Assembly (NCBI GenBank): GCA_026770705.1
Contig: JANJGN010000041.1
Span: 4,712,001-4,776,000 of the forward strand
Length of the DNA stretch: 64,000 bases
Direction: 5' to 3'
Source of the DNA: Isurus oxyrinchus
Taxonomy: Eukaryota
Below, piece after piece: positions 7,263 to 62,615 of this stretch. Positions within the stretch are counted from its first letter, which is position 1. Each line of letters begins with the position of its first letter. A program made the translations under genes and the position numbers. The notes under the pieces were generated by a model. That model saw only the letters and a list, made by a program, of their open reading frames with translations, searched no databases and was not told the DNA's origin.

Positions 7263-7516
7263 ATATAAAAACAAAAATCTGCGGATGCTAGAAATACAAA
7301 ACAAAAACAGAATTACCTGGTAAAACTCAGCAGGTCTGGCAACATCGGCGGAGAAGAAAAGAGTTGACGTTTCGAGACCTCATGACCCTTCGAAGGGTCA
7401 TGAGGACTCGAAAAGTCAACTCTTTTCTTCGGTCTTGAGGACTCGAAACGTCAACTCTTTTCTTCTCCACCGATGCAGCCAGACCTGCTGAGTTTTTTCC
7501 AGGTAACTCTGTTTTG
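7263..7516. mobile_element. Mini fold-back PLE insertion (imperfect palindrome of the PLE 3' end)
   Basis: Symmetry centre CCCTTCGAAGGG (7386-7397). A ~35-bp tandem duplication sits in the right arm (7396-7430/7431-7465). An unpaired tail lies on the left. Diverged TSD GTGTGGATACCTAT (7249-7262) / GTGTCGATAACTAT (7517-7530). Confidence 0.88.
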
Positions 7517-7799
7517 GTGTCGATAACTATCCTGTTGTGTTGTAAGCAAATGAATTACAGCGTTGCCCCGGTCCCCAATCCTCCATCCCCACAGAGCTTT
7601 TCGCCTGAAGCCGGCCTGTGAACCCCATATTTGAGTACCAGGTTTGCAGTGCGCTGGGTGTAGGCTACATATGGCACAGCCACACCACATTGCTTTTAGC
7701 AAGGTGCTATCAGGACCTCATGTACTGGGAACCAGATTGGCCTTGAGATTTCAGACATTCTGTAGTGGAGCTTCCTGTGCTCACCATGTGTGGCATTTT

Positions 7800-20202: not shown

Positions 20203-23200
20203 ATATTGAACTGTCCCTGTCAGCGTTGCAGAGTTAGAAAGTTTGAATTGTGATACCAGGTCCTGACAGCCTCGTATTCATTGGAACAGCTGTTCCTATA
20301 AATAAAAGAACTCCCAAAACAGTAGTTGCTGGATCTCTGATAACTCGACATATGTAACAAAGACAAACGTCACCAATTTCCTACAAATCACTTCTGAGCC
20401 AAATAGTACATGGGGGAATTTTCAGAACAAGTTTCATGAAGTCTGACACCCTCCAAATTTCGGACAGTTGTAGAATGAGCTGCTTCCCAGATTTCCATAT
20501 AACTCACATGATTTAAACAAGGAAGGCCTGCTCTTCACGTGTTTTGTGAAAGGATGGGAATTGGCGTAATTGATCAATCATTCCCATGGTACATCGGGCT
20601 GAGCGACGGCTCTATATCTTGGATTCAAAACTTTTAAACTCAATTTCCCTACGATTCATTTCAAAGCGCATATAGCTCACTCTTATTTTTTCACGATTTA
20701 TGCGGCTACCTCTTCCGCAAATGCTCATTCACAACACTCTCTGTTTCATGTTATCGGGTGCTTTCACACAGAAAGCTACCAAATGGCTGTTGTCATAATT
20801 CTCGAATGTTTAAATATGTTTAACTTGATATCCACTCATAATTATAGCGAGTGACGCCTCAACCATGTATCAGCACGATTTCCCAGACAAGAAACGGCTG
20901 ATCACACCTGGCCCCAACATAAATTTCCTTCTTGGCTTACCAAACATGATGAATGTGAAAAAAATATAATGTAATTCTTCCTGTGGCATATACTTCTAAT
21001 TTCTTTAACTTCAATGCCATTCATAGAATTGAACCATAGACGGGCAACAGCATAGAAGCAGCTCATTTCGCCATTCTTTTCCTTATTGTCTCTGATAAGT
21101 AAGTTGCAACTGGCAGCCACTGATAGAATAGAGGCACAAAGGTGCAAGTGCTTCGATGTTAGAACATGGCAGACTGACCTGTCCCTCGGGTATGGATAAT
21201 TGTGGCGACCGTGCCTGGCACCATGCTTTGGGGGAGGGTGGGGGGCGGCGGAATGTGTTGTGCGCTGTGGTGACCATTGAAAGCGGGTGACCTTTCATAT
21301 CTGGGTAAGTTTGAAGGCGTCTGTTTAAGTGACACAAATGAGCGGCCCCCTTCGTATTTAGGATTCAATGGCCAGCATGAGCAGGGACACTGGAAATGGG
21401 GGAATATTGCTCGGGTGCGGAGGAAATGCAAAGCTAAAAAGCAGGAAATGAAGAGACCCTGATATGTTCTCCAGAAAACTAGAAGGCTGTGAAAAATGTT
21501 CCGGCAAATCTGTAAAATATTCAATTAATGCACTTCAGCGAATGCAGCACCGAGTCTTTGGAAGAGGGAAAAATCTACACAGGCTGATGAAATAGCAAAT
21601 TCTTCCGATGCGCTTCCCAGTAAAGAATTAATATATGGTCCAGCAAATTGGCGAGATACCCTATTCAACAAGAAGACGATGGACATTCCTTTGGGAAAGG
21701 GGCCTGTGAAAATATTGGGCAGTGCCTATGTCTTCCAAACGATGATGAGAACGAAACTTTTCAGAAGACTTAAACTCACTGGAGATTCCAAACGGAAAAA
21801 TAGTTGAAACAAATTGCCTGGTTACAAAAAAATCTCTGATGCAGATTTATGATTCTACTGCAATTTGTACGGCGCAGAAAACGCACGCAAATTATGCAAG
21901 GAATGCGGCAGTGTCTGGAAACATCACAATGACAGATTGCAATGTGATCGAAATACTTAAGGAGCATTTTCAAAACGCAACAAAATGAATTGAAACAAAG
22001 CGAATGTTCCCAGAATTGAAGGCACTGGATGATAAAAAAAACAGAGAGATAAATAAACAAAGTGAAGAAAGAAAAGGGCAATCCGCGTTCATAGATATTA
22101 TAGCAGTCGTTCAGCTCCAGTAGATCATTACTCAGAGTTTCGTTGAAAACCCGCAAGGATTTATGAACACATCAATGAATCTTTTCCGGGATTAATTGCC
22201 ATTAGAGCAAAATTGGACTCTACCATAAAAGGATATGCCCAATGCATCAAAACATAACACGCTCTTGACGATTTTCTTTGCTCTTCTATTAGAAATGAGA
22301 TAATTTTGATGAAGGCGTTGCAGGTGAAAGAAATAAACGTTATTGTAATGGTGCAGGCTGCAATAAAACTTGTGCTTATTCTATTCAGTACCTCGGGTCT
22401 GAGTGATGAAGATCAGATATTCCTTGTGTTCATTAAGTTGATCTGACTTCTGAAGATGTGAATCGAGTAGAGGATTTATTCATTTTATGCTGACTCAAGA
22501 CAACAGTTGGCCAGGCCTGATTCTCTCAATGATGCGCCAGATAAGCTTGGCCTTCGCATCACTGACTGTAAGATGCAGGGACACCACAAACGGGTAAACA
22601 TTAAGTGTCAGATACGAGGCGTACAGGCCTGCTCCCTTCATCAAAAACCTCGAGGCTTGTTAACTCCATGAGGCTGACTCAACTTATCTCTGGTATTAGA
22701 AGTTATGGCAAAGTGCAGTGCTAAAACCATGACATTGATTCGGAATAGTGCACCGAAATTACATAATTATTACAGTTTAAAATAGATGGCATATATTGAG
22801 AGCGGATGCTTTCTAAATAATGTGAAAGTCGTTGTCAGACTGCTGGTGGAATTTCGAGTGTAGAGTGGGAATGAAATCTGTTACCAAACAGCTGAATTTA
22901 AATGGCATTGATTACACTTGCTGAAGAAGGTGAAAACTCAACCCTTAACATTAAGGCTCAGTCTACGATCAACGACAGAGTCGAAGCTTTCGAATTTTGC
23001 TTTGCAAAGGTTGAGTGGGACGACAGCATATTTGCATAAGCATTGTTCCCCAGACGATTCCATCTTTCGAAATGCAGTTTAAGGCTGCTTTCTCATTACG
23101 GCGAAATAGCGAAAATGAGAAACAGGCTGCATAGCACTCTTAATAATTTGAGATATTATTTGCAAGAGCGGTTCTTTCATGAAACGTTGATGGGCCAATT

Positions 23201-24318
23201 TGTGAGTAGCTGGAAAACGGCAAATGGATCAGATATTGGTGGGAGTTGGTTTTAAGCCACCAAACAATGGTGCTAATTTGTGGCACAGTATATATCAAGA
23301 AATTCTAGCTGAATGTAACATGTTAATACAGGAAAATGAGAAACTTCAGTTTGCAAAATGAACGTGGTTAACCAGATCAATACTAATATCCTGGTAGAGG
23401 AATTTATTGAATGTGTACTAGATTGGTTTCAGAACCAGTATGTTGACGAGCCGACTAGGAATCGAGCAATGCAGATTTTAGTGCTCTGCCAAGTGAAAGA
23501 CTCATGGATTTCTATGCTCCCAAGTAGTATTTTGGAAATAGTCACAATAAAGTGATAGAACTTCGCAATAAGTATGGCAGCAAAATGCCGATTTCTGAAA
23601 CTCTATTCTTCAATCTGGAGAAAGGAAACTATGGATGTAAGACAGGCAAGTTGGCAACGATGGATTGAGAAAGTATAGGAAAATATTTGCCAGTGGACAG
23701 GCAAAGGCGAGTATTTAAGGAAATAATGTCAACATCAGACATGCATTCATCGAACGCTCAAGCACATACACGGAAAGAAATCACAAGCATTGTTACCAAA
23801 TGAAGTTAAATGTTGCAGTACATGAAATTAAATTATGTGTCGAGACACAGGAAGAAAAGTGGTAAATCTGGGGGTTGTGGGAAATTTAGAACACAGCAAA
23901 GAGAGAACTAAGAAAGTTATTTAGAAATGGGAAGATAATAGAATGCAATCCAGCGAGGAACATAAAGAGCAAATCTGTGCAATTTACAAGTAGTTTCTGG
24001 AACGTTTACATGTGAATAGTGAAACAGCTTAGAAACGAAACAGTATTTTTTGCCAGTCGAAGACATAAAGGATATATCCAAGATAAGCTCGGCTACGAAG
24101 GAACTTGTGAAACGGGGCAGCGAAAAGAAATAAATAGTTTTAGTGAAAAGGGTAGTACTTTAAATGTGAACTGAATTGTAGGTTAAATAATGTGCTGGAC
24201 TAGAATTCCTTCATCTCAAGAGTGCTGAAGGAGGAGGCTAAAGGAACAATGAATGTTTTGGTTGTTTTCTTTCGAAAATCTTTAGCTTTTGGAAAGCCTC
24301 CAGCGCATTACAAATTAT

Positions 24319-25309
24319 CAGAAGTACCTGGAGAAACTCAGCATGTCTGGCAGGATCGATGGAGATCGAGTCCTCATGACCCTTCAATAGAGCTAAGTGG
24401 AAATGGAAAAGTGGTGAAACATAAATTGGTTTAAGGGGGGAGGGGAGAAAGCAGTGATGAGAGGAGATAACCAAAAGATGTCACAGACAAAAGAACAAAA
24501 AGGTGTCGAAGGTGCTGATAGTATCTAAAAGAATGTGCTACATAATAGGGAATGTGGGACAAGCAAGGTAGCTCTAGTGGGAGTGGGGTGAAATAAAAGA
24601 TGGGTAGAATACATTTAAAAAATGGAAATAGTTGGGAAAAGAAAAATCTAGATAAATTATTCGAAAAAAAATAAAAGGGAGGGGAAAGAAATGGAAAGGG
24701 GGTGGGGATGGAGGAGGGAGTATAAGATCTAAAGTCGGTGAACTCAATATTCAGTCCGGAAGGCAGCAAAGTACCTAGTCGGAAGATGAGGTATTGTTCA
24801 TCCAGTTTGCGTTGAGCTTCACTGGCACAATGCAGTAAGCCAAGGGCAGACATGTGGGCAAGAGAGCAGGGTGGAGTGTTAATATGGCAAGCGAAAGGGA
24901 AATCTGGGTAATGCTTCCGGACAGACCGAAGGTGTTCTGAAAATCAGGCACCCAATCTGTGTTTGGTCTCTCCAATGTAAAGGAAACTGCGTTGGGACCA
25001 ATGAGTGCAGGAAGTTAATTTGGGGGATTTGCAAGTGAAATGCTGCTTAACTTGAAAGGAGTGTTAGGACCTTTGTACGTTGAGGAGAGACGAAGTGATG
25101 GAAGAGTGGTCTATGGTGTCAGGGAAGGAACGATCACTATGGAATGCCGCAAGGGGGTTTGAAGTGAAGTTTGGTGGTCCTATAATGCTGGAGTTGATGG
25201 AAATGGCCGAGGATGATCCATCAAATGGGAAGGCTGGTGGAATGTTCAAAAAGGACAAGGCAGACCCTATCATGTTTCTGGTAGGCAGGAGAAGGCGTGA
25301 GGGCGAATG
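24319..25309 (-). mobile_element. 5'-truncated Penelope-like element (duplicate of 3039-3888, without the 141-bp deletion)
   Basis: Minus ORF 24431..24853 reads MSALGLLHCASEAQRKLDEQYLIFRLGTLLPSGLNIEF. Confidence 0.85.
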
Positions 25310-27378
25310 CAAATTATTAGATGTTGCATCACGATTTAAGAATGGAATAAGCGTGAAGAGACTGTACTGCAGTCATGTTAGTTTGACATAAGTGGTCTGG
25401 AAAATGACAAAATCTCTTAGTACAGATGCGATAACTTGGTATTTAGTAAATAATGGTAAAATTGCGCAGTTAAAAAGGGTATATGAAAGGGGAATCATAT
25501 TAGACAGATAATTAAACAACTCACTGGATAAGGAAATTCCTCAAATATTCACATTTCCAATGCTGTGAGGGCCCAACGCAGCAGTGGAAAATATAAAGCT
25601 GAACCATTCGCAAAAAAACTTCCTCTACAAGTACCGAGTCAATGACCCATCTTGGCCTCCTCTGTAGGTTCCCAAAATCAGAGATGATAGACTTCAGCCA
25701 AATGTCTTCACTCTCCGTGATATCAGGAAGCCACTGAACCTCTGGATACTGCAAGACGATGAATATTGCTGCAATTGTTTGATTTCCATTTTTATAGAAA
25801 GATGTGAATGCATGGAGGCGCTTCAGAGAAGGCTCACTAGGTTGTCACTTGGAATGAACGGGATGGCTTGTGAGGAAAGGTTAGGAAGATCGGAGTTGCC
25901 TGCACAACATTTTAGAGGAGGAAGGGGTGAAATACTTGAAGTGGATGCGAACCTGAAAACTTTTTTCAAGGCAGTGGGAAATTATTTTTCATATTTTGGG
26001 TGAGACCTGAATTAGGCGACGTTTATTAAAAAAATGCTTTGCTCTTTTAGGATAGAGTTTATGAATTTGTGTGTTTTTATGTTTGTTTCTCCTCGAGGTT
26101 TATCTGACTGTGGAACTCTCTACTTTAGAAGGTGGTGGAGGCTCGATCACTGATATTGTTAAGATGGAGGTCAAAATATTATTGCAAAGAAAAGGAATCA
26201 AACCTTAGCGGGTTGGTTTGGAATATGTAACTCGAAACAACCAGATAATGAATGGACTATATGAATGGTGGAGAAGTCCGATGGTCCAAATAGCCTATGT
26301 CTGCTCATATCTTCTATGTTTGTATGTTCCTAATCGTGACGACATGGACGAATCTAATCACAACAATATAAACTTTCAATTTAAGTTGTTGTGAGAGCGA
26401 ATGAGTTCAGTGAGCACAAAGCGGTGAGGGTGAATTTAGTTTCGTGAGAGTTTATATATAGCCTGCACAGTTTTTGGTGAGTTTTGATCATACAGTTTTG
26501 TAACTGGTTGTTGCCAGGAAAATCATTACAAACATTGAGCCTGGATTTCACGAAAAGGACACGTGAGGCCTTGAGCAACAGATGGTCTGGAGTAAAGGTT
26601 CTGATATAGTGTGGAGGATCGAGTATAAAGCACTGAGTGAGTGTGATGATATGGACCGCATGTTAATCAAAGCCAAATAGATCACAGAGGTTCTGACCTG
26701 TCTGTTTCAGCATCAGATTTTGTCCAGACACTCGTTCAGGAGCAAATATTGATTAGAAATGAGGAGAATTACCGCCATCTTCACAATCTTGAGAAACACC
26801 GACTGTATTGCAATGAATCATTGATTTCTGGCATCGCATCTAGATACAATGGTTTACCAGGAAGTACGCCAAAGCAAAGATGGGAGAGTAAGATAACAAG
26901 ATCTCTATTAAGATAAGAATGGGTTGTTGAAGTAATAACTGATTGCAGAGATTCATAAAAAAAGACAAAACAGGGCAGATTAAACTGCTACAAGAGTGAG
27001 AGCATCAGACATCGTTCTACAATCTTACTAGGGCAAAAACAATAGCCACGATAACGAATACATGTATTAAAGCACTAGTCGGAAATGGATCTGTTTGGCT
27101 TAGTTAACGGCGAATCATATCCAGAAATAACATTCAAAAAATGTAAGATAATACGCTTGTCCCTTGTTTGTACATTCCGTCTCTTGTTCCCATATCGACT
27201 GTATTGTGTAACTATCGAACCAATTGATCTCAGATTCAGATCCAGTTTTGCAACATTCAAATCTATTGTTCCCAGACTCAGATCTGTGCAGGCAAACTAG
27301 GTAAATGTTGGTCGAAAATGGAAATCCAACGGCAAAGTGGAATCTCATTGACTCCCCTAGAATGCAATGGCAGCCATG

Positions 27379-27450
27379 TTTTCCTGAGTATAGTGGTGAG
27401 TATCCCTACCTTCCACACGGGGGACCAGGACTCAATTCACCACTGTGGAG
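27379..27450 (+). pseudogene. tRNA-Asp-derived pseudogene (duplicate of 5954-6025)
   Basis: AGTATAGTGGTGAGTATCCCTACCTTCCACACGGGGGACC; anticodon TCC; B box decayed. Confidence 0.8.
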
Positions 27451-30311
27451 AAAATTTGTTGTTTGGATTGTGCGCTGCAGAAGAAGTGCTCACGGTTTTG
27501 GTTAGCAAATCGGATTTCATTTCTGCATGATGATCGACCTAAAGATCACCTCCTCATCAATTGGGACAGAAGGCAGTTTTGCAAATGTACATCATGAATA
27601 ATGTTTCTGGAAAGATCCCCTGTGGGCAACGTCCCCTTAATTCATCATGCTGCCTGCTTCCACTTTGTAGACGTCGCAACGTTTACCCAAAATAACGCTT
27701 CCCATTGTTTATTCAGGGCAATTATATAAAAAAAAAACATGCTTTAGAATCGACAAGTGCAAAAGTTACCCCACACTTTGCGGTAACCAACAAGGTCAAC
27801 ATAATTCACATCCCGATCACGATTGAACATCCGGGGCTCACTGATGTCAATAGGTTCCAGGCAGGATCACAGCTCCATCTCGCCTGTACCCGAAGATGTG
27901 GGAGCCTTAAGTAAGATTAGGATGGCCAGAGTGCCACTGCAATGTACGCAATGTGTTTCAGTAAGCTCCAAACAGGCAAAATCACCAAAGAAAAACATTT
28001 GAATGCAAGGTAATTTTCATTTCGCACTCCACCCTTCTTTCAATTCATTCCTAAATTGGTACATTACTTATGGCATGTGAACACTTCCTTGCAGCACTTA
28101 AAATTCGATTGGAAGGAAATAACAACTTGTGTGCAGTCACCAGAAAAAGGCTAAGGTATACACACAGTTTCTCCAAGAATCCCGTGATTCAGTCAGCATC
28201 GCATCAAGTCTTTGTCACCTGGTAACTCGACTTCAACTAAAGTTCCGGCTGCCAAATGAGCCTGGATTTTGAAAGCCGCTCACTGAACTCTGCAGAACAC
28301 GCTGTGTTTAAAGGTGAGATATGCTTTTTCAGCTTGGTATGCAGCCCGAGTTATGCATGGCTTCTTCGTCCTAACTAAGAGTTCCTGTCCCAGGTGTGAC
28401 GTGCAAATGTCCAAAATGCTCACTGGGCGAGAAAACCGTCAGTTTTCACAGAAACCCAAATTGTTGGAATAACACAGCGGGCCTGAAAGCATCTGTCGAA
28501 AGAAAGACACGGTTTACTTCAGGAGTCCGTGTGGCACTTCTTAAAAACGGTAATTTGTCAACTGTGTTTGGACGTGTTTGCATGTGTTGCCATAGGAAAG
28601 CGATCCCAACTCATTTCTGCACTGCTCCTTAAGCAGTTAACATTCAGTTTGAAATGAAAACAGCCGTGTGGATACCTATATATAAAAACAAAAATGTGCG
28701 GATGCTAGAAATACAAAACAAAAACAGAATTACCTGGTAAAACACAGCAGGTCTGGCAACATCGGCGGAGAGGAAAAGAGTTGAGCTCCAAACTGGCAAA
28801 CTTAGTAAAGAAAGAACATTTGAAGCCACGCAAATTTCCATTACTTGCAATAAATTGGAAAAATAATATCTTCTTTCAAGAGGTACAAATTCAATCGCCC
28901 TCCACCCTTCTTTCACGTCATTTCTGAATTTGTACGCTACTTATTGTATGTGAACATTTCCCTTCAGTGCTTAAAAAATCAAGCCGCAAAGGAGAGTAGA
29001 ATGGCATGCATTCACCGCAAAAGGCCAAGGTAATCATGCATAAAAACAACGTTTCCACAAGATTCTCCTGGTTATGTCAGCAACGCATCAAAACTTTGCC
29101 GCCTGATATCTCACTCTCCATCAACTTATTTTCTGAGTTCCAAAATGTGCCTGGATCTCGAACAATGCTTTTTCACCTCTTCAGAAAACGGGGTGGTGAA
29201 AGGTGAGATAAACTCTTCGATTTCAGGTTTGCATGCAGCCCGAGTTATGCATGGTTTTTACCTCCCAGATAAGAGCATCAGTCCCAAGTTTGATGCGCAG
29301 GTGTTAAAAATGTTCGCTGGGTGAGAGAACAGGTCATCTTTTTATGGAAAAACAAATTATTGGAAAAACGCAGCAGTCCTGATAGCACCTGTGGAAAGAA
29401 AGACAGTGTTTACTTTACGAGTCCGTGTGGAACTTATTAAAAACGATCATTTGTATTTTGTTTTTGGACGTGTTGGCATATGTTGCTGTACGCAGGCTGT
29501 CCTCACTGCATTTCTGCACTCCTCTTTAGGCAGTTAACATCCAGTCTGAAATGAAAACAACCTTCTGGTTATCCTATGCAGTAGTCTCGTAATCGACTGC
29601 ATCAAAACAGGCTTTCCCCATGTCGCCTCTGACATTCCCCGGACGTCTTCCCCCTCTGCTGGTCCTCACTTCTGCAACTACAAGTTTCAAGAAATTATTG
29701 TTTTTGAACCCTTCGATTGAGCACCTTCTTTTCTTTCTGCGCTGAAAGCTGACCATGAGAATTCAGGCTTTTTGTTTCCATTTTGCCTAAAGCCATTTTT
29801 CTGCACTGATCCTGCTGCAGCACTGACCGTTTATCTCTGAAGATGGACCAAGAAAGACTTAAAATGCAGAGAGCGACATCCGGTGATTGGGAAACGTTGC
29901 TTCCGACAACGTTGCTAACGTTTCTGAGAGGAAATTAATAAAGAAACTTCTTGCTCTACCAGTTACATGCGAAGTTTTGAATCCGACACACTGACATGTT
30001 TGTGCGGATTATGGAAATACACAGGGGATTGTAACAGCAGGGCATAGGCGTCTGAAGCAGATGGCCGACGTGGATTCCTTTGCGAATGACAAAATGAGAG
30101 AAACAGCCGAAAAAAAGGATTTTTGCTTCTGTCCAACGGGCAAAACTGATGGCATGTAGCGATTTTCAAGAAAGAAGACGTATCCTGCTTAAACCGATGC
30201 AAGGTAAATGTTTGCATTGTGCAGGCAAACTGAGTAACTATTGCTTCTAAATGAAAAACCCAGGGCCATTTGGAAAAACACGGGGTCCTTTGGCAAGCCG
30301 ACGTATGCCTC

Positions 30312-32279: not shown

Positions 32280-32354
32280 ATAAAACCTTGGTCGCACAGT
32301 GCGAGGTGGAATGTATGCTCACGCTTTTGATTCACAAGCAGGTTCTCATTTCCA

Positions 32355-34330
32355 AAACAAAAATAGAATTACCTGGAAAAAGTCAGCAGGTCAGGCAGCA
32401 TCGGCGGAGAAGAAAAGATTTGACGTTTCGACTCCTCATGACCCTTCAACAGAACTGGGTGAATCCAAGGAGAGGAGTGAAATATCAGCTCGTTTAAGGT
32501 GGGGGCTGGGTTGGTGGGGGAGGAGAAGTGCAGGTGGGTGGTGTGGTTGTAGGGACAAGCAAGCTGTGATAGGAGCAGTTAATCAAAAGATGTCACAGAC
32601 AAAAGAACAAAAGAACACAGAGGTGTTGAAATTCGTGATATTATCTACATGAATGTGCTAATTAAGAATGGATGGTAGGTCATTCAAGGTACAGCTCTAC
32701 AGGGGGTGGGGGCATAACAGATTTTAATATAATGGAAATAGGTGGGAAAAGAAAAATCTATATAAATTGTTGGAAAAAAAATCAAAATTAAGGGGGAATA
32801 AACAGAAAGGGGGTGGGGATGGAAAAGGGCGTTCAAGATCTAAAGTTGTTGAATTCAATATTCAGTGCAGAAGGCTGTAAAGTGCCTAGTCAGAAGATGA
32901 GTTGCTGTTCCTCCATTTCGCGTTGGACTTCACTGGATCAATGCAACAAGCCAAAGACAGACATGTGGGCAAGGGAAGAGGGTGGAGTGTTAAAATGGCA
33001 AGCGACAGGGAGGTTTGGGTCATTCTTGCAGACAGAAGGCAGGTGCGCTGTAAAGCAGTCGCCCAGTTTATGTTTGGTCTCTCCAATCTAGAGGAGACGG
33101 CACTGGGACCACAGTCCTTGACAGGGGCCTCAAATGTGTCCAGCCCATCTCCTGTGCTTCAGGGCTCACGGTTTGTCCTCCATCCCAGAAACATGATAGG
33201 GTCTCCCTTGTCCTCACTTATCACTCCACCAGCCTCCGCATTCAAAGGATCTTCCTCTGCCATTTCTGCCAACTCCAGCATGATGCCACCACCAACACAG
33301 CTTCCATTCACCCTCCATGGTGGCATTCCGTACGGACGTTCCCTCTGGGACACCCCGGTCCACTCCACCATCACCCCCTACTCCCCAACCCCCACATATG
33401 GCATCTCCACATGCTCACACAAAAGATGCAACACATGCCCTTCATTTCATCTCTCCTCACCGTCCAAGGGCCCAAACATTCCTTTCACTTGAGGTAGCAT
33501 TTCACTTGCATTTCCTCCAACTTAGTCTACTGCATTCGTTACTTCTAGTGTGGTCTCCTCTATATTGGAGAGACCAAACGTAAACTGGGCGACCGCTTTC
33601 CAGAACACCTGCGGTCTGTTCGCAAAAATGACACAAACATCCCTGTCGCCTGCCATTTTAATTCTCCATCCTCCTCTCTTGCTCACATGTCTGTCCTTGG
33701 CTTGCTGCATTTTTTCCAGTAAGCCCAACGCAACCTGGAGGTACAGCAAATGATTTTTCGACTGGGCACTTTACAGCTTTGCAGCCTGAATATTGAATTT
33801 AACAACTTTACATCTTGATTCCCTCTTCCATCCCCACCCTTTTTTTGTTTCTTCCACCTTCATTTTGTTTAGTTTTTTTTCCAGTACTTTATACAGAGGT
33901 TTCTATTCTCACCTATTTCGATTATTTTTAAATCTTTTATGCCCCCCACCCCCACAAAAGCTGTACCTTGAGTGCTCTACCATCCATTCTTAATTAACAC
34001 ATTCATTTAGATAATATCACCAACTTCCACACCTCTGTTTTTTTTGTACTTTTGTCTGTGACACCTTTTGATTATCTGCTCCTATCACTTCTTGCTTGTC
34101 CCTACAACCACACACCCTCCACACTCTACTTCTCTCCCCCTACCCAAACCACCCCCACCCATCTCAAACCAGTTTATATTTCACCCCTCTCCTCGGATTC
34201 ACCCAGTTCTGTTGAAGGGTCATGAGTACTTGAAACGTCAACTCGCCGATGCTGCCAGACGTGCTGAGTTTTTCCAGGTAATAGTATTTCTGTTTAGGAT
34301 TCCAGCATCCACAGTTTTGTTTTTCTTTTT
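32355..34330. mobile_element. Penelope-like element with inverted partial copy (minus arm ~32355-33098, plus arm ~33100-34330)
   Basis: Both arms carry GIY-YIG C-terminal sequence (plus arm: LYIGETKRKLGDRFPEHL near 33560-33610), the 3' UTR and the hammerhead-like motif, with 3' ends pointing outward. Diverged TSD AGGTTCTCATTTCCA (32340-32354) / AGGCTTTCATTTCCA (34331-34345). Confidence 0.9.
34205..34243 (+). ncRNA. Decayed minimal hammerhead ribozyme motif in PLE 3' region
   Basis: AGTT-CTGTTGA-A-GGGTCATGAGTACTT-GAAACGTC-AACT; stem II mismatched. An antisense counterpart lies at ~32418-32456. Confidence 0.6.
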
Positions 34331-35049: not shown

Positions 35050-35720
35050 AGGACATTTTCATGCGTGCATATCAGGTATTGAAGACAGCAGGGAATGGAA
35101 AGACATTTTTGTTGTATTAACATGAGGACTGAACACAAGAGTGAGAATAGCACATTGAACATTTATAAGGCACAAGTCAGGTGTCACCTGGAGCGCCACA
35201 ACCAGTTCTTGGCGCCATCCTTGAGCAAGTGTTTGGTGACATTGGAGAGAGTAGAGCGGAGATTCACAAGATGATTGCAGATAAATCACTAAAGCTTTCT
35301 GGGTAGATGGGGGAATTCTGTCTGTTTAACATGAAGAACAGAAGGTTGAGAGTAGGATTGAGAAAGAAATTCAAGATCCTGAGTTGTAAAGACAGGAAAA
35401 TAGTGAGGATGGTTTCCGACTCAAGCGAGCATCAAAGACGATGGGGCATAGAATCAAGGTTTGCAAAATGAATAAAAGTGGTTTGAGGTTTTTCTTTCAC
35501 TCAGCGGGTGGGTGGAGCATGGGACAGCATCACTGAGGGGATGGTGGAGGGAGATTGGAGAAAGGTGTTCAGGAGATAATTGTAATCCTTCCTGAAAAGA
35601 AACATTGTGTAACCTTACGTGGTTAACACAGGGGAGTGGGACAAGATTAAATGTTCTTTCATATAGTTAGTGCATACACGACGTGGCAAATGACCTCTTT
35701 GTGCATCGTAAAGATTCAGG
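35050..35720 (+). mobile_element. CR1 LINE 3' fragment
   Basis: ATTTATAAGGCACAAGTCAGGTGTCACCTGGAG...TTCTTGGCGCCA (LYKxLVRPHLE..QFWSP-like) and TTGGAGAGAGTAGAGCGGAGATTCACAAGATG (LERVQRRFTR-like). Confidence 0.65.
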
Positions 35721-38700
35721 GACTATCTGACTGTGTTACACAGCTGAGGGCTGTCACTGGGGTATTAGAGTGGGTGAATGTCACTATGGTTAAACAGCTG
35801 GGGACTGTCATTTAGGCAACAAATTGTGCTGCAGAGTCTCGCACTATTTTAATGGAATGATGGGCAGGCACTATGCTTACAGAGCCACGGACTGTCACTA
35901 CAGTGAACGAATGTGGGGATCATGACCATGGTTACTGTGCTGGAGGGACACTGCCAGAGAAACATAATTGGTCAAAATGTCACTCAGGTTAAAGAGCTGG
36001 GACGCAGTCAGTACAGATTTTGATTGGGGAGATTATCTCTCAGGTTACAACACCAGGGGCCAGAAGGTATAGTAATTGATTCAGGAGACTGTCGCTCAAG
36101 TTACAGGACCGGGGGCCATTCATGTATTTCAACAGATTGAGGAGACTGTCGAACAGGTTGCAGAGCCTCTCGCCAGTCATTATAGCAACTAATTTCAGAA
36201 ATTGTAACTAAAGCTGCAGAGCCAGTGCAGTGATTGATTAAGGAGGCTGTTAATCAAAAAACAGAACCAGGGCCTGTCAATATAGTAATTAATTGAAGAG
36301 ACCATCACTCAGGTTACAAAGCTCGGGGCCATTCAGTATACTTATAGATTCAGGAAACTTTCAGTCTGGTTTCATATCCGAGGTCCATTCATTATAGCAA
36401 ATAATTGCAGACTCTGACAATCATGTTAAAGACCCAGAGGCCACACATGCATTCTAATTTATTGGGGAGAGTGTCACTCTGGATACAGTGTGGGTGCCCA
36501 TTTGGGAATGTAATTGATTGGGGAGATTCTCTCACAGCTTTCAAACCAATGGCCAGTGAGTATTTTCATTGATTAAGGAGACTTTCTTTCAGTTAGCAAA
36601 TCCGGGTACCTCACTGTGGGAATTTTGGGGGGGGGGGGGAAACATTCACTCAGGTTAGAGAGCACGGGGCCAGACAATATTGTGATTGTTTGTGGAGACT
36701 GTCACTCAAGTTAGAGTCAGTGGCCAGTCAGAAGTCTAATTCATTGAGGAGACTGTCACTCTGGTTACAGTGCCAGGGGCCTGTCAGTGTAATATTTGAA
36801 TAAGGAGCCTTGAACTCAGGCAAAAGACCGGGGACCAATCAATAAATGAATTGATTAGGTGGTCTATCACACTATGTAAAAAGCCGGATACCAGAAATTT
36901 AGGAATTATCTGGGGAGACGGTAAATCAGTTAACAGATCCGGTCAGACATTGACTATAGGTATCAATTACGGAGACTCTTGCTCAGGTTGCAGAGCGAAG
37001 GGTCATCTACGATCGTAGTTGATTGAGGAGATCTTCACTCAGGTTACAGAGCCGGGGGCCAGTCCATAAAAATAATTCTTTGGGGAGGCTGTGACTCAGG
37101 TTATAGGGCAGGGGCCAAGTCAATAAATTAATTGATGGGGGAGGCTGTGACTCATGGTACAGAGCCCGGACCCAGTATATGTTGTAACTGACTGTGGAGA
37201 CTGTCATACTGGTTGCATTGTCGGTGGACAGGTAACATAGTAATTTATTGAGGAGGCGGTCACTCAGGTTACAGAGTCAGGGGCCAATTAGTAGTCTAAT
37301 TGAATGGATGGTCGCACTGCAGCAAGAGAAGCAGCGGCCCTTTGGAACATCAAATGATTGGGGAGATCTGTCACTCGGGTTACAGAGCAGGGGGGGCTGT
37401 CACTCTATAAATTGATAGACGCGAATTTAGCAAAGATTACAGAGCTGAGGCATGCATTAGAGTAATTGATTTGGGAATCTGTCTCACTGGTTACAGGGCC
37501 GGAGGCCAGCCAGTATTTTAATTGATTAGGTAGTCGTTCACACAGGTTATAGAGGCAGAGGATATTCAGGATCGTAGTTGAATGGGGAGGCTGTCAGTCA
37601 CTTTAGACAACCAGGGGTCACTCAGGTTACATAGTCGGGCTCACACTCAGTACAGTAATTGATTGGGGAGACTGCCACTCAGGTTACAGAGCAGGGAGCC
37701 TTTCTTTGCAGGAATTGATTGAGGAGACTGTGACTCAAATTAAAGAGCCCGGGCCTTGTCAGAATAATAATTGAATGGCGAGTCTGTCATTCAGGTCAGA
37801 GGACCGGGGTCCAGCCACTATATTAATTGATTAGTGAGACTGTCATACAGCGTACAAAATCGTGGTCAGTCACTAGAAAAATTGATTGGGGCGGCAGTGA
37901 ATTAGTTAACAGAACCTGTGGGACACTGACTATAGGAAAACATCTGGGTGATTACCGAGTTACAGAACCAGGGGTCAGTCACGATATTAATTGTTTGAGA
38001 AGGTTTTCAATCAAGTCCCTGGGCCAGGCACCAAACAGTTTAGCAATTGATTGGGAAGCATGTGATTGAGGTTACAAATCCGGTGCAAGTCAATATATTA
38101 ATTGATTGGAGAGGCTGCACAGAGGTTTCAGAACAGGGATCCTGTCACTCCAGGAATTCATTGAGGAGACTATCAAGCAGGGTACCGAACCAGGGACAGT
38201 CACTATAGGTATTGATTGAGGAGGGTGACACACAGGTTCCGGAGCCATGGCTAGTCACTGTTTTAATTGATCGGGGAGACAATCCCTCAGATTGCAGAAC
38301 CAGGGACAGTTAGAATAGGAATTGATTCAGCATACTTTCACTGAGGTTATTGAGCTGGGGACCTGACACTATAGGAATTGATGGACGAAACTGTCACACA
38401 GGCTGCAGAGCCATGGAGAGACATTACTTTAAATGCCTGGGGAGCCTCTCACTCAGGTTCCAGAGCGAGGGGCCGTCAGTATTGTAACTGAGTGAGCAGA
38501 TTGTCTCTCTGATTACTGAGCCGGATGCCTGGAACAATAGGAAGTGATTGAAGAGACTGTCAAAAAGGTTACTGAGATGGGGCTAGTCGCGATATGAATT
38601 TATTGAGAAGACTGTCGCTCAGGATACAGGGCCAGGGGCGACTCAACTATAGCAATTGATTGGGGATGCAGTCACTCAGGTTCCACATCAGGGGCCCAGC

Positions 38701-41700
38701 CAGTATTGTAAACGTTTAGAGAGACTGTTACGTAGGTTCCAGTGCCAAGGGCCAGTCATAATATTAATTATTTGCCGAAACAGTCACCCAGGTGACAGAG
38801 CCATGTCCACTCAGTATACGATTTGATTGGGCAGACTGTCAATCAGGTAACAGAGGCAGTGGGACGGTCACTATTGGAATCGTATAAGGATAACCTCACT
38901 CAGGTTAAAGGGCCTTGGGTCTTTGAGGATCGTAAATGATTGGGGAGACTGCAAGCCAATTTACAGAACCAGCCTCTTATCAGTGCAGTAATTGATACTG
39001 CCACTCAGTTTACAAAGCAGGGGCCTGTCAGTATAGAAAATGACAGGGGAGCCTGGAACCAGTCAGGATAGTGATCTACTGGGGAGACAGTCTCTCAGGT
39101 TCTCGATCCAGGGGCCTGTCAGTGCAGCAAATGACTTTGGGTATTTTCTTACAGCTTACAGAGCTGGGCCCTGTCAGACAGAGCTGGGCCCTGTCAGAGG
39201 ACTAAGTGATTGTTGAAACTGTCACTCAGTCTAGTGAGGCAGGGGCCAGTTTGTATATTATTTAACTGGGGAGACTGTGACTCAGTTTAAGGAGCCAGTG
39301 TCAGTCCGTAGAGTATTTTATCATTGAGACAGTCTCACACGTTACAGGACTTTGCCCTGTCAATATACTAATTTTTGCTGTCACTCAGGGTACAGAGCCA
39401 GGGGTCATTCATGATAGAAATTGATGGGGATACTTTCACTCTTGTAACAGAACCAGGGGCCTGTCTGTAGAAGAATTTATTGTGGAGTTTTTAACATTCG
39501 CTAAGGTTAGAGACCTAGTGGACGTCACGAAAGTAATAGAGGGGATAGATTGTTGGCATGTTCACAAAGCCAGGGGACTGTCACTATCATTATAATGATG
39601 GGACACTGACTATTTACAAAGCCGGTTTCCTCTCACTACTGTAATATACTGGGGTGACTGACCATATGTTTACAGAGCCTGCAGCATGTCACTCTAATAA
39701 TAGACTCGGCAAATTGTCAGTATGTTGACAGATCTGAGGCCCTGTCACTATAGCAATAGCTTGGGGACCCTCTCAGTGTCTTTACAGAACCAGGGGCTTT
39801 ACACGATTGTAAAGCATGGATAGCCTGTCAGTGTGTTAACAAAGCCAGTGACCTGTCACTCTCGTATTAGAGTTGTTAGAATGTCAGTTTGCTGACAGAG
39901 CCTGAGGCCTGTCACTATCATATCCGCGTGGTAGTCTGTCATTATGTTTACAGAGCCAGGGACCAGTCACTGTTGGAACAGATTGTGTAGACTGATAGTA
40001 TATTTCCATAGTTGAGAGCCTCTCATAATGTTGATTATGGGGTGACTGTCAGTATGTTAACAGGTGGGAGGCCTGCACCAAAGTAATCCAATGCGGACAC
40101 TTTTAGTATCTTTACAAAGCCAGGGGACAGTCATAATGTCATTAGACTGGGAAGCCTCTCTGTATGCTTAAAGAGCTGTGGGCTTGACAATATTGTAAGA
40201 GAGAGGACAGACTTTCACTATTTTTACAGAACCCGTGTTCTGTCACTCTAGTAATACCTTGGTAGAGAATGTCTGTATGTTTACAGAGACAGTGGCCCGT
40301 CACATTTGCAATAGAGCAGGGAGAATGTCAGTGTGTTAACAGGCCCGGAGGCCTTTCACTGTTGTAATACAATGGACTGACTATCAGTATGGTTACAGAG
40401 CACGAAGCCTCTTAATATCCTTACATTCTGAGGTGACTACCAATATGCTTACAGACCTGTGGACGTGTCAGTTGGGCTGTAGCGACGGGAGGCTGTCAGT
40501 GTTTTTACAGAGCAAGAAGCCTCTCACTGTGCCAATAGGCTTGCATGACTGTCACTAAGTTTACAGAGCCACTGGCCTGTCATAAGCATAGTTTACGGAG
40601 ACTGACAGTATGTTGACAGAGCCGGTGTCTGTGAAGATATTGATGGAGTGGGTAAAATGTCAGGCGCCCTCTCTTATTGTAATAATATTACAATTAAGTC
40701 AGTATGTGAACAGAATGGGGACCTGGCAATATAGTAATAGTTTGTGGGCACTGTGTTTATGTCTAAGTAGCTGGGCGCCTGTCAATATTGCAATAGAATG
40801 TCATTGCTTTCAGTATTTTAATAGAGTCAGGGTTCTGTCACTATAATTTGGAATTGGGGGGTGGGGGGGGGGGGGGGTGGTGGGGGGGTGGGGGGATGGG
40901 GGGTGCTGAGAGAGTTTCTCCAATGACTCGACCATCTGATATACTAAAAGTGGGAATACCTTGAGTTGCTTTAAGGAGTGGGGTGACTGTCAGAATTTTT
41001 AAAGATCTGAGGCCCTATTACAAGAATTAATGTGTGGGGAGGCTGTCTGTATTGTGGCAGAGCCAGGGGTCTATTGGTAATTTAGTAGTGAGGGGAGATT
41101 GTCAGTATGTTTCTAGTGCTGGTGACTAATCACTATTGTAAAGAATGGATAGCCTGTCAGAATGTAAAGAAGCAGGGGACCTTTCACAATAACTTAAGTG
41201 TGTATAGACTGTGAACATGTTTACAGAGCTGGAGGCCTGCCATTCTAGCATTCGAGTGTAAAGACTGTGAACATGTTGACAGAGTCTGGGGACTTCACTA
41301 TAGTATTAGCGTGTGCTCATTGTCAGCATGTTTACAGAGGCGACAACGTCTCACTATAGGAGTACAGTGGTATTCTGTCTGTATATTAACAGAACTGGCG
41401 TCCTGTCACTATAATAATAGAGTAGGGACATTGTCAGTATGTTGACAGAGCCGGGAGCCTGTCACTATAATATCTGAGTGCATAGACTGTCTGCATGTTG
41501 AGTTTGTCAGGGGTCTGCCACTAGAGTAATAGAGTGAGGAGACTGTATGTTTAACGAAATGGAGGTCTGTCAATGTAGTAATGGAAAGGCTAGCCTCCCA
41601 ATATTTTGACAGAACCGGCGTCCTTTCTCCATTGTAATAGAATGCGGAGACGTTCAGTGGATTTCGAAGGCCGTGGCCTATCAGTATAATGATGTTGTGC

Positions 41701-43200
41701 AGACTTTCTGTTTGTTTACAGAATCAGGGCCTCTTTTTAAAGTATTAGATTGGGGTGACTGAGGGCATATTTAGACAGCCGGGGCCTGCCTTTCCGTTAA
41801 TGGAGTGGGGAAACTTGCAGTAAGCTTAGAGAGCCAGAGGGTGTGAATGTAATTGTGAACGTAATTGTCGAGAACAGAGATTGTCTCTGTACTCACAGAG
41901 CCGGGAGAATGTCACTAATAGTTTGGACTGAGGATAGTATCAATATTTTTACAGAACCTGGGGACTGTCAAAATAGTAATAGACTGGGGAATCTCTCACT
42001 TTGTTTACAAGGTGGGGGCTGTCACCATAATAGTAGAGTGAGGAGTCTGAACGTTTACAGAGCCAAGGGCCTCTTACTGTGGTAAAAGAGTGGAAACACT
42101 GTCAATATGTTTAAACAACAGGGGGGCTCGCAGTATAATTATAGGCTGGGTAACTGTCAGTATGTTTACAGTGCCAATGGCTTGTTACTAGACTAATAAA
42201 GTGAGGTGACTGTCTGACTTTTTACAGAGCTTTGAGCGTGTCAATACATTAGTAGAATGAGGAGAAAGTTGGTATGTTTATAGAGCCCGAGGCCTGTCAA
42301 TATCGTACTAGTGTAAAGAAACTGTCCATATGTTCACAGAGCCTGGGAGCTGTCACTCTTGTAATAATCTGCAGAGTGAGTCGGTATTTTTATAGAGCAG
42401 AAGGCCTGTCAATTAGCTTGTAGCGTGGAGAAAATGCCATGATATATAGAGAGGTGGGGACTTGTCACTGTTGTAATAAATTGTGGATATTCTCAGTATG
42501 TGCACAGACCGTGGGAACTCTCAACATATTTTTAGACTGTCAGTATGCTTATCGAGCTGGGGACAGTCACTACAGTAATATAAATCTAAAATGTTATTGT
42601 TTTACAGAACTAGGGTCCTCTCACGATAGTAATAGGGTGGGGTGTCTTCAGGATGTTTACAGAGCCGGGGTCTGTAAATATTGTAATTTAGTTTGCAGGC
42701 TGTTAGTACATTTACAGGTGGGCAGCCGGTCACAACAGTAAAATAGTGTAGAGTCTGTCAGCACCTTTACAGAACGGATTTTGCCCCGATAGTGCTAGAA
42801 TGGGAGATTGCCATCATGTTTACAGAGGCCGGGACCCTCTCAACATAGTAATAGAGTATGCAGAGTGTCAACTTGATTACAGAGTCTGGGGCCAGTAACT
42901 ATCGTAATAGAGCGGGTAGGCTGCCTGTATGGAGGTCTATCAATTTAATAATTTAAAGGCTATCCTCCCATTATTTTGACAGATCTGGCGTCCTTTCTCT
43001 ATTTTAATAGAATGTGGAGACGTTCAGTGGATTTCGAAGGCCGTGCCCTATCACTGTAATAATGGTGTGCAAACTGTCTGTTTGCTTACAGAGCTTTGTG
43101 CGTGTTACTACATTAGTAGAATGAGGAGAAAGTTGGTATGATTATAGAGCCTGGGGCCTGTGACTATCGTATTAGAGTGAGTCTGCCATTATAGTAATAG

Positions 43201-43445
43201 TAAAACAAAAACAGAATTACCTGGAAAAACTCAGTAGGTCTGGCAGCATCGGCGGAGGAGAAAAGAGTTGACGTTTCGAGTCCTCATGACCCTTCGACAG
43301 AACTTGGAAGTTCTGTCGAAGGGTCATGAGGACTCGAAACGTCAACTCTTTTCTCCTCCGCCGATGCTGCCAGACCTACTGAGTTTTTCCAGGTAATTCT
43401 GTTTTTGTTTTAGATTTCCAGCATCCGCAGTTTTCTTTGTTTTCA
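43201..43445. mobile_element. Mini fold-back PLE: perfect 105-bp inverted arms + ~33-nt tail
   Basis: 43201-43305 is the exact reverse complement of 43308-43412 (spacer GG). Tail 43413-43445. Exact TSD ATTATAGTAATAGT (43188-43201, 43446-43459). Confidence 0.95.
43309..43347 (+). ncRNA. Minimal type I hammerhead ribozyme-like motif (mirror copy on - at 43266-43304)
   Basis: Stem I AGTT/AACT; core CTGTCGA + extra A; stem II GGGTC/GACTC with ATGAG loop; GAAA; palindromic ACGT helix III; GTC cleavage triplet ending at 43343. The core differs from CUGANGA at position 6 (A>U). Confidence 0.72.
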
Positions 43446-43767
43446 ATTATAGTAATAGTGTTGGTTGACTGGCAGCACGATTACACAATAGGAACAGATT
43501 GGTTAGACTGTCAGCATCTTTACAGAGTTGGGGTTCTGGAACTGTTCTAGTAGAGTGGATAGAATGTCGCTATGTTTAACAGAGCCAGTGGCCTGTCACT
43601 AAAGTAACAGAGTGTGGATACTGTCTCTACGTTTTAAGAACTGGGTGCCTGCCAAGTACCTAATGGCGAGGGGAGACTGTCGCTATGTTAACAGAGACGG
43701 GGGCCTATTAGTATAGTTATGGGGTCGGGAGACTGTCAATGTGTTTACAGATCCGGGCCTGTCACTA

Positions 43768-44120
43768 GGGTGGTGCGAGTAATCCAGGGACTCAAATAAT
43801 TATCTGGGAATCCCTGTTCGAATACCAGCAGGCTGCTGGTCAAATTCAAATTTAGCAAAGTTCTAGAATAAAAAATAATCATTACAATGTCTAAAGATAA
43901 CCATAAAATCTTTGCCAATTGTACTATACGGCCATGTGTTTCACTAATGCCCTTCAGGGAACGAACTGCTGCTCTAACCTGGTCTTGTCACGATTTGACA
44001 CAAGACCAACAGCGAGATGGTGGATTCTTAAATACTCTCTGTACAACGGCAATTTGGGATGTCCAATGTACTAACCCAGCCAGCAACGCCCACATACGAT
44101 GAACGAATTTAAGAAAAAAA
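43768..44120 (+). mobile_element. HE1-like tRNA-derived SINE inserted in the satellite
   Basis: 5' AGTAATCCAG...GTTCGAATACC (B-box-like). The 3' tail CCAGCCAGCAACGCCCACATACGATGAACGAAT+A-run resembles the LINE tail at ~52580-52625. Confidence 0.75.
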
Positions 44121-45855
44121 GTAGCATAGTGGGGTTGATGTAATATTTAGAGAGCTGTGAATGCGTCTCCATATTGATAGATGTGTTAGACTGTAAGTAT
44201 TTTACATGGCCAGGCGCTGGTCACCATAGCAATAGACTGTCAGAATTTTACAGGGTCAAGTGCCTGTTACTATAGTAATTAAGTAGGTAGACTGTCAATG
44301 GTTTAAAGGACCATGATCCCATTACTATAGTAATTGAGTGTGATTATTTTACAGGATCAGGAGCCTATGCCTATATTACTTGAGTGGTTAGACCGTCAAA
44401 ATTTTAAAGGACCAGGGGCCTGTCACTATAGTAATTGAATTGGTAGACTGACAGTATTTTAGAGCACCAGGCACCTATTACTAGAGTAATAGCTTGGGTA
44501 AGCTGTGAGGATTGTACAGGGCCTGGCGCCTGTTACTATATTAATTCAATGGGGCGACTGTCAGTATTTTACAGGACCAAAGGCCTGTCACTGTAGAAAT
44601 TGAGTGGGTAGACTATCAATATTTTACAGGGCCAGGCACCTGTCACTCGAGTAATAGATTGGGGAGGCTGTCAGCATTTAAGAGAATCAGGCTGCTAGCA
44701 CTAGAGTAATTGAACAATCCGATGGTCACTATTTTACAGGACCAGGCGTTTGTCACAAGAGTAATAGAGAGGCTAGACTGTCAGTATGTTACAGGGTGAT
44801 GCGCCTGTCACTATATGAATTAACGGGGATGTCTCTCAGTCTTTTCCAGGGCCAGGCACATGTTACTATAGTAATTGAATGTGTAGAATGTCATTATTTT
44901 CATTTCCGAATTCCTAAGGATATCACAGCCGGCCCGAAAATTTAGTGAGTGGAGTCGGGGTCGGGCGTGGTTGTTTCTGGTTTGAAGGTGATGACGCAGA
45001 ATGAAGTGCGAAAGCAGTTCACTTTAACCGTGTGTGCGGGAACGTGAGTTTGGATAACTTGTCAGTGGAATTGAAGGCGAATGTTTGTTTACTCAGTATT
45101 CGTTACCCTGGGGAGGAGTGTCTCTGTGTTGAATTCTATTCCTGTCAGTAATTTCCTGATAGTGTGAACAAAATTGGCCGCAATCTGAGCCTGGCGATTG
45201 CATTATTGTTGTGGAGGGATTTTGCTCTATCAGCCTGCTTCCGTTACTGTAAACAAGTGCTGGTTTCATTCGCTATCTGCCATTTTCTAAAAAGTGTAAG
45301 TGAGTGTAGCATTCCTTCAGCATTGTTCACAATCTTGATGCAGTAATCGAGTGCGACAGTGATTCCTAATCAGTTCATGGAGCCCTTTGTGTATGTGTGT
45401 GCAACTGTCAGTGTGTGATTAGCTTTTTATCATTCAGTACAATTCGATATGTGCACGGGGTGTCATTCTGATTCTGAATGCCTGTGGTTTTGCGTGCGTG
45501 TTGTTTTCTCTCTGCATCAATTATTCTCTGAAGCCATGCAAGGAATGTGACAGGGAGTTTCGCTAAAATAGTTTTTGAATTTCAGATTCGCTTTGCATAT
45601 TTCATTGAGCATTGGAGTTTCATTCTGTGTCGGTGCTTGATATTTATTCTATGTCACTCCATTGTAACCTTTGTCTGCGATATGCTTATGTCAGGGTCGG
45701 GTCATAGGAACATTTCATTACGTTGTGTTCTGTGCATGCATGAGGTTCAACTTGTACTTGTCAGTGTTAGATGTGTAATTTTTGGCATCGACTCTGCGCC
45801 TGTCAAACGTGGACATGAGAATGAGAAATTAATTTTGTATCCCACAATAACTTAC

Positions 45856-55059: not shown

Positions 55060-55505
55060 ACAGATGTGGGCTAAACTGCGCACAGGGAGATGAGAACTGT
55101 GCGCAGTGAAGCATATGTGGTCCAACCGAGGGATATGGAGACAGAACTGTTGACAATGCTCGGATTGTGTTCTAACACAGTGGTATGGAAAACACAACTG
55201 TGCACAGTCTCCAAGTGTGGTCTAAGCAAGGAATACGGGGACAAGAACTGTGCTCAGTGCTCAGAGAGTGTTCTAACCGGGAGATATGGAGACCAGAAAT
55301 GTGCATTGTGATCAACATGTGGTCTAATAGAGTGATATGGAGGACAGTACTGTGCACAGCCCTCTATGTGTGTTCTAAGCGAGGGATATTGAGATTCGAA
55401 CTGTGCTCTATGTAAGTTCTAAGCGAGAGCTATGGAGACCAGGGTGGTGCACAATACTCCATATTTGGTCTAACCAAGGGATAAAGAGCCCAGAACTATG
55501 CACAA
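55060..55505. repeat. 51-bp minisatellite (~9 units) derived from a CR1 ORF2 motif
   Basis: Unit GAACTGTGCACAGTTCTCCAGGTGTGGTCTAACCGAGGGATATGGAGACCA; the antisense consensus reads VRPHLENCAQFWSPY. Confidence 0.85.
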
Positions 55506-62164: not shown

Positions 62165-62615
62165 AGGTGCCATGTAACCAAATTATCTGGAGACCAGAAC
62201 TGAGCACAGGCCTCCATGGCTGTGCTAAAACAATTACATGGAGAACAGTATTGTGCACAGTTCTCCAGCTGTGATCTAACCGAGGGATATGGAGACTTAA
62301 CTGTGCACAGTTTTCTAAGTGTCGTCCATCCGAGGTCGAAAGAGTCCAGAACTGTGCACAGTTCTCCAGGTGAGGCATAACCGATTGATATGGCGGATAG
62401 AAAAGTGCACAGTGATCCAATTGTTGTCTAACAGAGTGCTATGGAGACCAGAACTGTGCCCATGGGTCTTGTTGAGGTCTAACCAAGGGACACGGAGGTT
62501 TGAACTGTGTACAGTTATCCAGGTGTGGTCAAACCGAGGGATTTGAAGATCAGAACTGTGCACACTGCTCCACGTCTGGTCTAACCGGGGGTTACGGAGA
62601 TGGGTCTGTGCACAA
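62165..62615. repeat. Second array (~9 units) of the 51-bp CR1-derived minisatellite
   Basis: Same unit and orientation as 55060-55505. Minus ORF 62136..62420 shows PHLENCAQFW and RHLENCAQL. Confidence 0.85.

Follow-up and report, generated by a model that had tools for sequence, protein, structure and literature searches.

Within the window, i.e., the whole 64-kb stretch of Isurus oxyrinchus DNA that was analyzed, a perfect inverted repeat was localized whose arms of 105 nt each (43201–43305 and 43308–43412) are 100% complementary and separated by the two bases GG. It is the only perfect inverted repeat of more than 14 bp with a spacer below 40 nt in the window. The insert is flanked by an exact 14-bp direct repeat, the target site duplication (TSD), with a left copy at 43188–43201 and a right copy at 43446–43459 (both + strand); base 43201 is assigned twice, as outermost base of the left arm and as final base of the TSD. 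An initial sequence-only reading had described the absence of arm mismatches, the 2-nt spacer and the exact 14-bp TSD correctly, and the variants CAGTAGG and GGAGGAG are indeed present in both arms, where the copies at 7268 and 32351 differ. The unit lacks full symmetry: an unpaired tail of 33 nt (43413–43445, + strand) occurs on the right-arm side only and corresponds to the tail of Penelope-like elements (PLEs) described in the accessible text of PMC8557442 and in PMC11167929. For numbering we used a 3,329-bp unit at locus L046, in which +1 was placed 7 nt before the ribozyme core. Positions 43308–43446 are 100% identical to +3 to +141 of this unit; the paired portion of the long sense arm (43308–43412, + strand) comprises +3 to +107 and the tail +108 to +140, where it stops at the outer one of two 3′ sites (+136 to +146). 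The short inverted arm (43201–43306, − strand) comprises +2/+3 to +107 and stops at the inner site (+100 to +108). At the head-to-head junction (43306–43307) the first G fits element position +2, and the second one is untemplated. Judged by these matches, the window copy is an ORF-less palindrome of ~250 bases which reads as two back-to-back front ends of a PLE. It is hosted by a degenerate 55/56-bp satellite (42000–43760, approximate limits, + strand) that is uninterrupted in the paralog L204.

A minimal type I hammerhead motif with the layout given in the accessible part of PMC4209133 is predicted at 43308–43348 (+ strand), and its perfect complement forms the mirror motif at 43265–43305 (− strand). 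The 5′ strand of stem I (43308–43312) is followed by the core CUGUCGA (43313–43319), a bulged A (43320), a 5-bp stem II with one G-U pair (43321–43335), GAAA (43336–43339) and a palindromic stem III remnant; a 4-bp stem I and the GUC triplet were recognized as well, and the notional cut lies after 43343. The core departs from CUGANGA by a U at the conserved A6 (A6U), as it does in the full-length units. Exact U6 core words occur 77,192 times genome-wide vs 3,046 for A6, the dominant young lineage being U6 and older sister families keeping A6. Rfam returned no hammerhead match at the palindrome; the sole matches were miRNA models of hairpin shape that stayed short of their gathering scores, such as MIR1033 with 56 of 70 bits, and these matches reflect the shape of the hairpin. 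For a natural A6C variant low but detectable cleavage is reported in the consulted portion of PMC3088659; a description of A6U itself was not found in the literature searched. Of the earlier claim that each strand carries a hammerhead, the layout and the exact mirror hold, whereas the core is a variant.

Further traces of PLEs occur in the window. A decayed palindrome of like build lies at 7249–7532, with a tailed arm (7268–7393), a partly deleted centre, a 35-bp internal duplication, a second arm reaching to 7518 and a candidate 14-bp TSD (at 7249 and 7517) with two mismatches. The same superfamily is also represented by a long, older head-to-head insertion (32351–34322), which retains a GIY-YIG remnant and arms that are 83% alike, and additional PLE-superfamily remnants are located at 3039–3889 and 24319–25310. 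Positions 1–7367 and 21273–28784 represent a 98% direct segmental duplication, ~21 kb apart, with a breakpoint inside the PLE copy at 7268 (partner 28685–28784). On the + strand, as direct translation showed, 19040–19996 contain an open frame of 318 codons with a 7tm_1 match (E 5.8e-18), pointing to a rhodopsin-family receptor. The long degenerate 55/56-bp satellite, which has a 97% paralog ~3.4 Mb off, and 51-bp minisatellites occupy 35700–44900, 55086–55406 and 62238–62600.

Units of 3,329–3,354 bp are arranged in tandem at L046–L048, as partial tandems forming pLTRs. The parent ORF yielded 32.9 bits with RVT_1 (cut-off 29.6, E 6.9e-8) and 22.3 bits with GIY-YIG, slightly below the cut-off of 22.6 (E 1.7e-4). 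YIDD and YIGET were present in a single unbroken frame in three of the seven long regions, and a CX2-5CxxC motif within the RT–EN linker was found in three frames. According to the available part of PMC8557442 this motif marks the clades Neptune and Nematis, and the label "Neptune-like" is used. The parent thus appears to be a young Neptune-like EN+ PLE, its clade label deriving from the linker motif. The features expected of EN+ PLE insertions were all observed, namely an ORF with RT and GIY-YIG, tandems, an adjacent inverted 5′-truncated copy, a tail of 30–40 bp and a TSD with an empty site. The insert in the window matches a part of the full PLE unit and lacks an ORF, in agreement with the non-coding, PLE-derived nature proposed beforehand.

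Genome-wide counts were obtained as exact sequence patterns over the 4.98-Gb assembly. The ribozyme-core 17-mer occurs 77,192 times and, joined to the read-through upstream sequence, 42,925 times. Exact head-to-head junctions with 0–12 nt between the 17-mers amount to 2,651, with none in the reversed control; short copies of this kind are therefore numerous. The variants shared by both arms of the window copy are markers of a subfamily with at least 2,207 copies, full-length units included.

The paralog L204 (C41:1.386 Mb) is located ~3.4 Mb off on the same contig, matches the flanks at 97% and contains a single target copy and no insert. In sequencing run X2 two contigs lead from 43201 directly into the sequence from 43460 on, i.e., they represent the empty site; one of them agrees with the window in all of 91 nt and the other carries the four differences of the paralog. 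The same join is found in three raw reads of X22, which is another sample. The depth over 43202–43216 was zero in all four sequencing runs, none of their contigs and reads contained a filled junction, and only the assembly shows the filled allele. The flank depth in raw reads was 1–5x vs 0.38x expected (1.9 of 4.98 Gb), so that some empty-site reads may stem from unassembled paralogs; within two mismatches only one paralog of the flank is assembled. A single target copy at the empty sites, in the paralog and in the reads, identifies the TSD as a true duplication and the insert as not fixed. The insertion is young and not fixed, although the empty-site reads may partly be paralogous, and at least some stubs of this type represent presence/absence markers.

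For a survey of the family, we took the first 100 entries in the list of 2,207 subfamily places, used 90 of them, which all come from the first 165 Mb of contig C1, and added the window copy. Among these 91 loci, 64 had an adjacent inverted arm, 17 were solo copies (one of which, L027, narrowly missed the cut-off for an inverted arm) and ten ran off the fetched stretch. After removal of the latter, of the window copy and of the tandem second copy L030, 79 loci were kept. Long insertions share the layout of the short ones, with arms in the kilobase range. An exact TSD was found in 58 of the 64 loci tried, with a range of 6–19 bp, a mode of 14 and 13–16 bp in 47 of the 58. The outer end of the tailed arm lies at +136 to +146 in all 58 exact-TSD loci and the inner end of the inverted arm at +100 to +108 in 36/47, which gives two fixed 3′ sites (~+104 and ~+140) ~36 nt apart. 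On the opposite side, arms in the family mostly start at +1 to +5, at the 5′ edge of the ribozyme: the end lies at −1 to +8 in 36 of the 79 long arms and at −3 to +8 in 31 of the 63 short ones, and in 27 loci both arms reach the edge. Copies of the solo class likewise end there without a mirror arm (10/16). As the ends of the window copy match these pile-ups, it can be regarded as a modal member, and the palindrome probably is the shortest size class of a normal head-to-head insertion.

Neither of two explanations of the common 5′ end was supported. Ribozyme cleavage does not set it, as no long arm among the 79 starts at the notional cut site (+37 to +41), and the older sister families with canonical core show 965 junctions at the 5′ edge of the ribozyme vs 66 in a window of equal width nearer to the cut site. 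Tight junctions had seemed peculiar to the A6U lineage (2,651/77,192 vs 2/3,046), until anchors suited to the older families retrieved those 965 junctions. In the young family, a 10-nt piece from the 3′ half of the hammerhead is repeated just upstream of the ribozyme (L046:4172–4181, unit −9 to 0); this repeat reads like a permuted half-ribozyme and is missing from the older families. Cutting at +2/+3 by such an upstream half-hammerhead was not supported, since many arms reach +1 or beyond and the older families, which lack the piece, stop at the same place. At L029/L030, two pieces spanning +1 to +138 follow each other in a short direct tandem, and the solo copies L119 and L135 have a repeated start; on sequence grounds these repeats suggest template jumps at the 5′ end of the RNA.

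Arms and junctions were compared in 72 short palindromes including the window copy; the selected subfamily contributed 28 of these. For three subfamily markers the two arms agreed in all of 53 calls, marker 73A having been selected on the long arm. This bears out one half of the earlier proposal that one arm was copied from the other or from the same template: a single template is supported, but the variants mark the subfamily and are not private to this copy. The concordance could also reflect that one subfamily is active at a time. Both arms extend upstream of −10 in 19 longer insertions; in nine of these their stops, at positions that are otherwise arbitrary, differ by no more than 20 nt, which is expected if both arms copy one broken RNA.

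These observations lead us to favor the view that the palindrome was made in one event at the window site, in that both target strands primed reverse transcription on one RNA and the cDNAs that ran off were then joined, and we consider this the likely course. The GIY-YIG nuclease would nick two strands ~14 bp apart, and, on the same uncleaved RNA, one 3′-OH would serve as primer at ~+104 and its counterpart at ~+140. Long insertions would result where this happens at the 3′ pLTR; where the same sites near the 5′ end of the RNA are used, both cDNAs would run off after 105–140 nt. The run-off point, deduced from DNA ends, would be the 5′ end of the RNA and most simply the transcription start (+1 to +5). 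The free cDNA ends would then be joined head to head by blunt, microhomology or small-insert end joining. Without an upstream pLTR and ORF the resulting stub would be a dead end that decays, and read-through RNA would fold as a hairpin, a possible substrate of ADAR or Dicer as a side effect. By analogy, a putative start site at the 5′ edge of the ribozyme fits the promoter of Penelope, which resides in the pLTR (PMC2377424, as far as accessible). For the Poseidon protein PAc it was established in vitro that both target strands are cut and extended, that reverse transcription begins at two internal RNA sites bounding the tail and that uncleaved RNA is the main template; the start site did not differ between the strands and a head-to-head product was not shown (PMC11167929).

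A more detailed "double strong-stop" reading is put forward only tentatively, as possible rather than probable. A protein dimer would start two reverse transcriptions 36 nt apart on one RNA; the inner one (+104) would lead, the outer one (+140) would displace its cDNA from behind, and both would run off at the capped 5′ end, the most successful lineage having an A6U and probably weakened ribozyme. If true, this would explain why pLTRs lie head to head, why only one side carries a tail, why truncation points are shared and why the arm without a tail has the longer reach, and the promoter could be read off from the piled-up junctions. Among 28 asymmetric cases, this arm extends further 5′ in 21 (p 0.013) and the opposite applies to seven; the former is expected if the inner enzyme leads and is opposite to a snap-back from the tailed cDNA. 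The short junction inserts are G or C in 31 of 47, several being templated repeats, and a cap-derived G at the junctions is suggestive only.

The main rival is fold-back or self-priming, in which a single nucleic acid (the first cDNA or else an antisense RNA) folds onto itself and serves as template for the second arm, the tip being opened and repaired afterwards; the antisense-RNA form is the hypothesis put forward for Adineta vaga in the available text of PMC3846280. It would explain the concordance of the arms and the near-symmetric truncations, and in its antisense version it also predicts a tail-less arm reaching further 5′, whereas the cDNA version predicts the reverse asymmetry. The junctions are difficult to reconcile with a simple fold-back. 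The arm starts are no more than 3 nt apart in 62/72, and 35 junctions show microhomology, seven are blunt and 30 contain inserted letters (33, 10 and 29 in a second parse); none of the 35 microhomology joins offers room for a loop, although the inserted letters of the 30 could hide a processed hairpin tip. Moreover, solo copies end at the same place without a mirror arm, and both ends are flush with the TSD at two fixed sites. We therefore regard fold-back as unlikely, while still taking it seriously.

Less probable still, and in our opinion doubtful, is a non-autonomous mini-element, i.e., an entire palindrome that is transcribed and retrotransposed or moved in the manner of a MITE; the sequence-only reading had considered a MITE-sized retro-element or a small non-autonomous PLE family. 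Thousands of copies of similar size, recurring centres and the pair L085/L107, which is identical throughout including centre and inner end, speak in its favor, and copying of the whole unit would indeed produce such a pair. Beyond this exception, no siblings sharing junction, ends and variants were found. Among 17 copies bearing the two markers of the window copy there are 15 types of centre, and of 11 loci genome-wide with its exact centre none of the other ten carries both markers; they differ in markers, ends and side of the tail, which is left in six and right in five. Since centres vary and no sibling has the same centre and markers, the unit does not appear to propagate itself, and its centre seems to be made anew each time. 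Markers follow those of full-length units and sizes grade into kilobase inverted copies, and the asymmetric ends with one-sided tail, the long and variable TSD (6–19 bp, mode 14) and the RT-encoding parent are at odds with a MITE, where inverted repeats are terminal and symmetric, TSDs short and of fixed length, and the partner encodes a DNA transposase.

As predicted earlier, a read-through transcript would form a hairpin of ~105 bp: the calculated fold of the palindrome reaches −207.4 kcal/mol (z −29.5), and none of 200 shuffles was as stable. The hammerhead motif alone amounts to ~−9 kcal/mol, so that the suggested competition between hairpin and ribozyme would be thermodynamically one-sided and would concern a variant core. 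A module of this kind, kept by host or element for self-silencing or as a ribozyme switch, is nevertheless most improbable. Apart from the stable hairpin, it could draw on the heavy A-to-I editing of Penelope in a lizard (PMC5625713, accessible part), which makes editing plausible here as a by-product, and on the small RNAs of A. vaga Penelope families (PMC3846280, accessible part). Against it, arms diverge freely: rare non-CpG changes are discordant in 27 and shared in six cases over 5,214 paired sites, rare CpG changes in 23 and five, and arms of 15 older copies are 82–97% alike. Perfect arms are found in 45 of 72 palindromes overall and in 25 of the 28 of the young subfamily, and are thus the norm for this age. 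In the comparison of arm with TSD mismatches, most mismatches are edge effects of the fixed 13-mer. As the arms decay independently and perfect arms are usual in young copies, zero mismatches indicate youth, as had been assumed, and not upkeep; gene conversion is not needed as an explanation. The window copy is furthermore absent from other haplotypes, lies in a satellite, has no upstream pLTR and has no host exon within ~20 kb, as far as stop-to-stop frames of at least 110 aa are concerned. An artefact of assembly or sequencing, to which the missing filled junction and the zero depth could point, can practically be discarded, because precisely 14 bp of the empty-site sequence are present twice, once on each side of the insert, which has modal family ends and a one-sided tail, 2,651 like junctions occur at unrelated sites with their own TSDs, and raw reads of another sample contain the family at great depth, including centre-spanning reads.

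Under the favored reading of two primed strands on one RNA, the window copy is one of thousands and likely built afresh at insertion; it is an ordinary insertion scar and not a self-copying or self-silencing module. The layout as such is already published, as the accessible parts of PMC3846280, PMC8557442 and PMC2377424 document. Beyond the papers cited here, no description of ORF-less palindromic PLE stubs or of two-strand priming as source of the inversion was found in a search that covered sources other than subscription papers and Repbase. In the part of PMC8557442 available, the origin of tandem and inverted PLE structures is stated to be undefined, and two models exist, antisense self-priming (PMC3846280, in part) and two internal start sites (PMC11167929). 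Both can be tested on sequence with the thousands of young stubs bounded by TSDs, by means of their fixed 3′ sites and fixed 5′ stop, the geometry of the junctions and the asymmetry of the arms. In read-through transcripts the stubs would moreover be many near-perfect hairpins, which ADAR or small-RNA pathways could act upon. Their population is a useful record of the unsolved insertion mechanism of PLEs.

In twin priming of L1, both target strands prime on one RNA and an inversion between TSDs results, the two primers copying separate stretches of the RNA that do not overlap. In the window copy the two arms represent identical bases, which results in a palindrome. The minimal type I hammerheads of metazoan PLEs (PMC4209133, in part) likewise show a base bulging out behind A9, a short stem I, a long stem II and a palindromic stem III remnant. 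In contrast to these, U6 predominates here, and the partner copy is an exact antisense arm and not a dimer partner; in Schistosoma mansoni, hammerhead pairs on opposite strands are 100–700 bp apart (same source). Non-LTR retrozymes (10.64898/2026.07.22.740005, in part) are likewise short, non-coding and PLE-derived with a type I hammerhead, but consist of direct tandem cut-to-cut units, whereas the window copy is one inverted pair that ignores the cut site; a short direct tandem was present in only one of 90 loci (L029/L030). PAc, the Poseidon of Anolis carolinensis (PMC11167929), resembles our family in the two internal starts bounding the tail, in the cutting and extension of both strands and in the uncleaved template; it belongs to another clade, and that work did not demonstrate head-to-head products, a run-off point or the use of one RNA. 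Among the closest systems are the EN+ PLEs Pen2a of A. vaga (PMC3846280), the general PLE scheme (PMC8557442) and Penelope of Drosophila virilis (PMC2377424), which, in the parts accessible, share the head-to-head inverted 5′-truncated copy, the one-sided tail (33 nt here, 31 in Pen2a), the TSD, the partial tandems and the hammerhead in the pLTR. TSDs are longer here than in the A. vaga cases, with a mode of 14 bp vs 8–10 bp (PMC3846280, accessible part), and the parent has the CX2-5CxxC linker of Neptune and Nematis. What distinguishes the present stubs from these EN+ PLEs are arms of only 105–140 nt, which extend from the 5′ edge of the ribozyme to two 3′ sites, contain no ORF and occur in thousands of copies.
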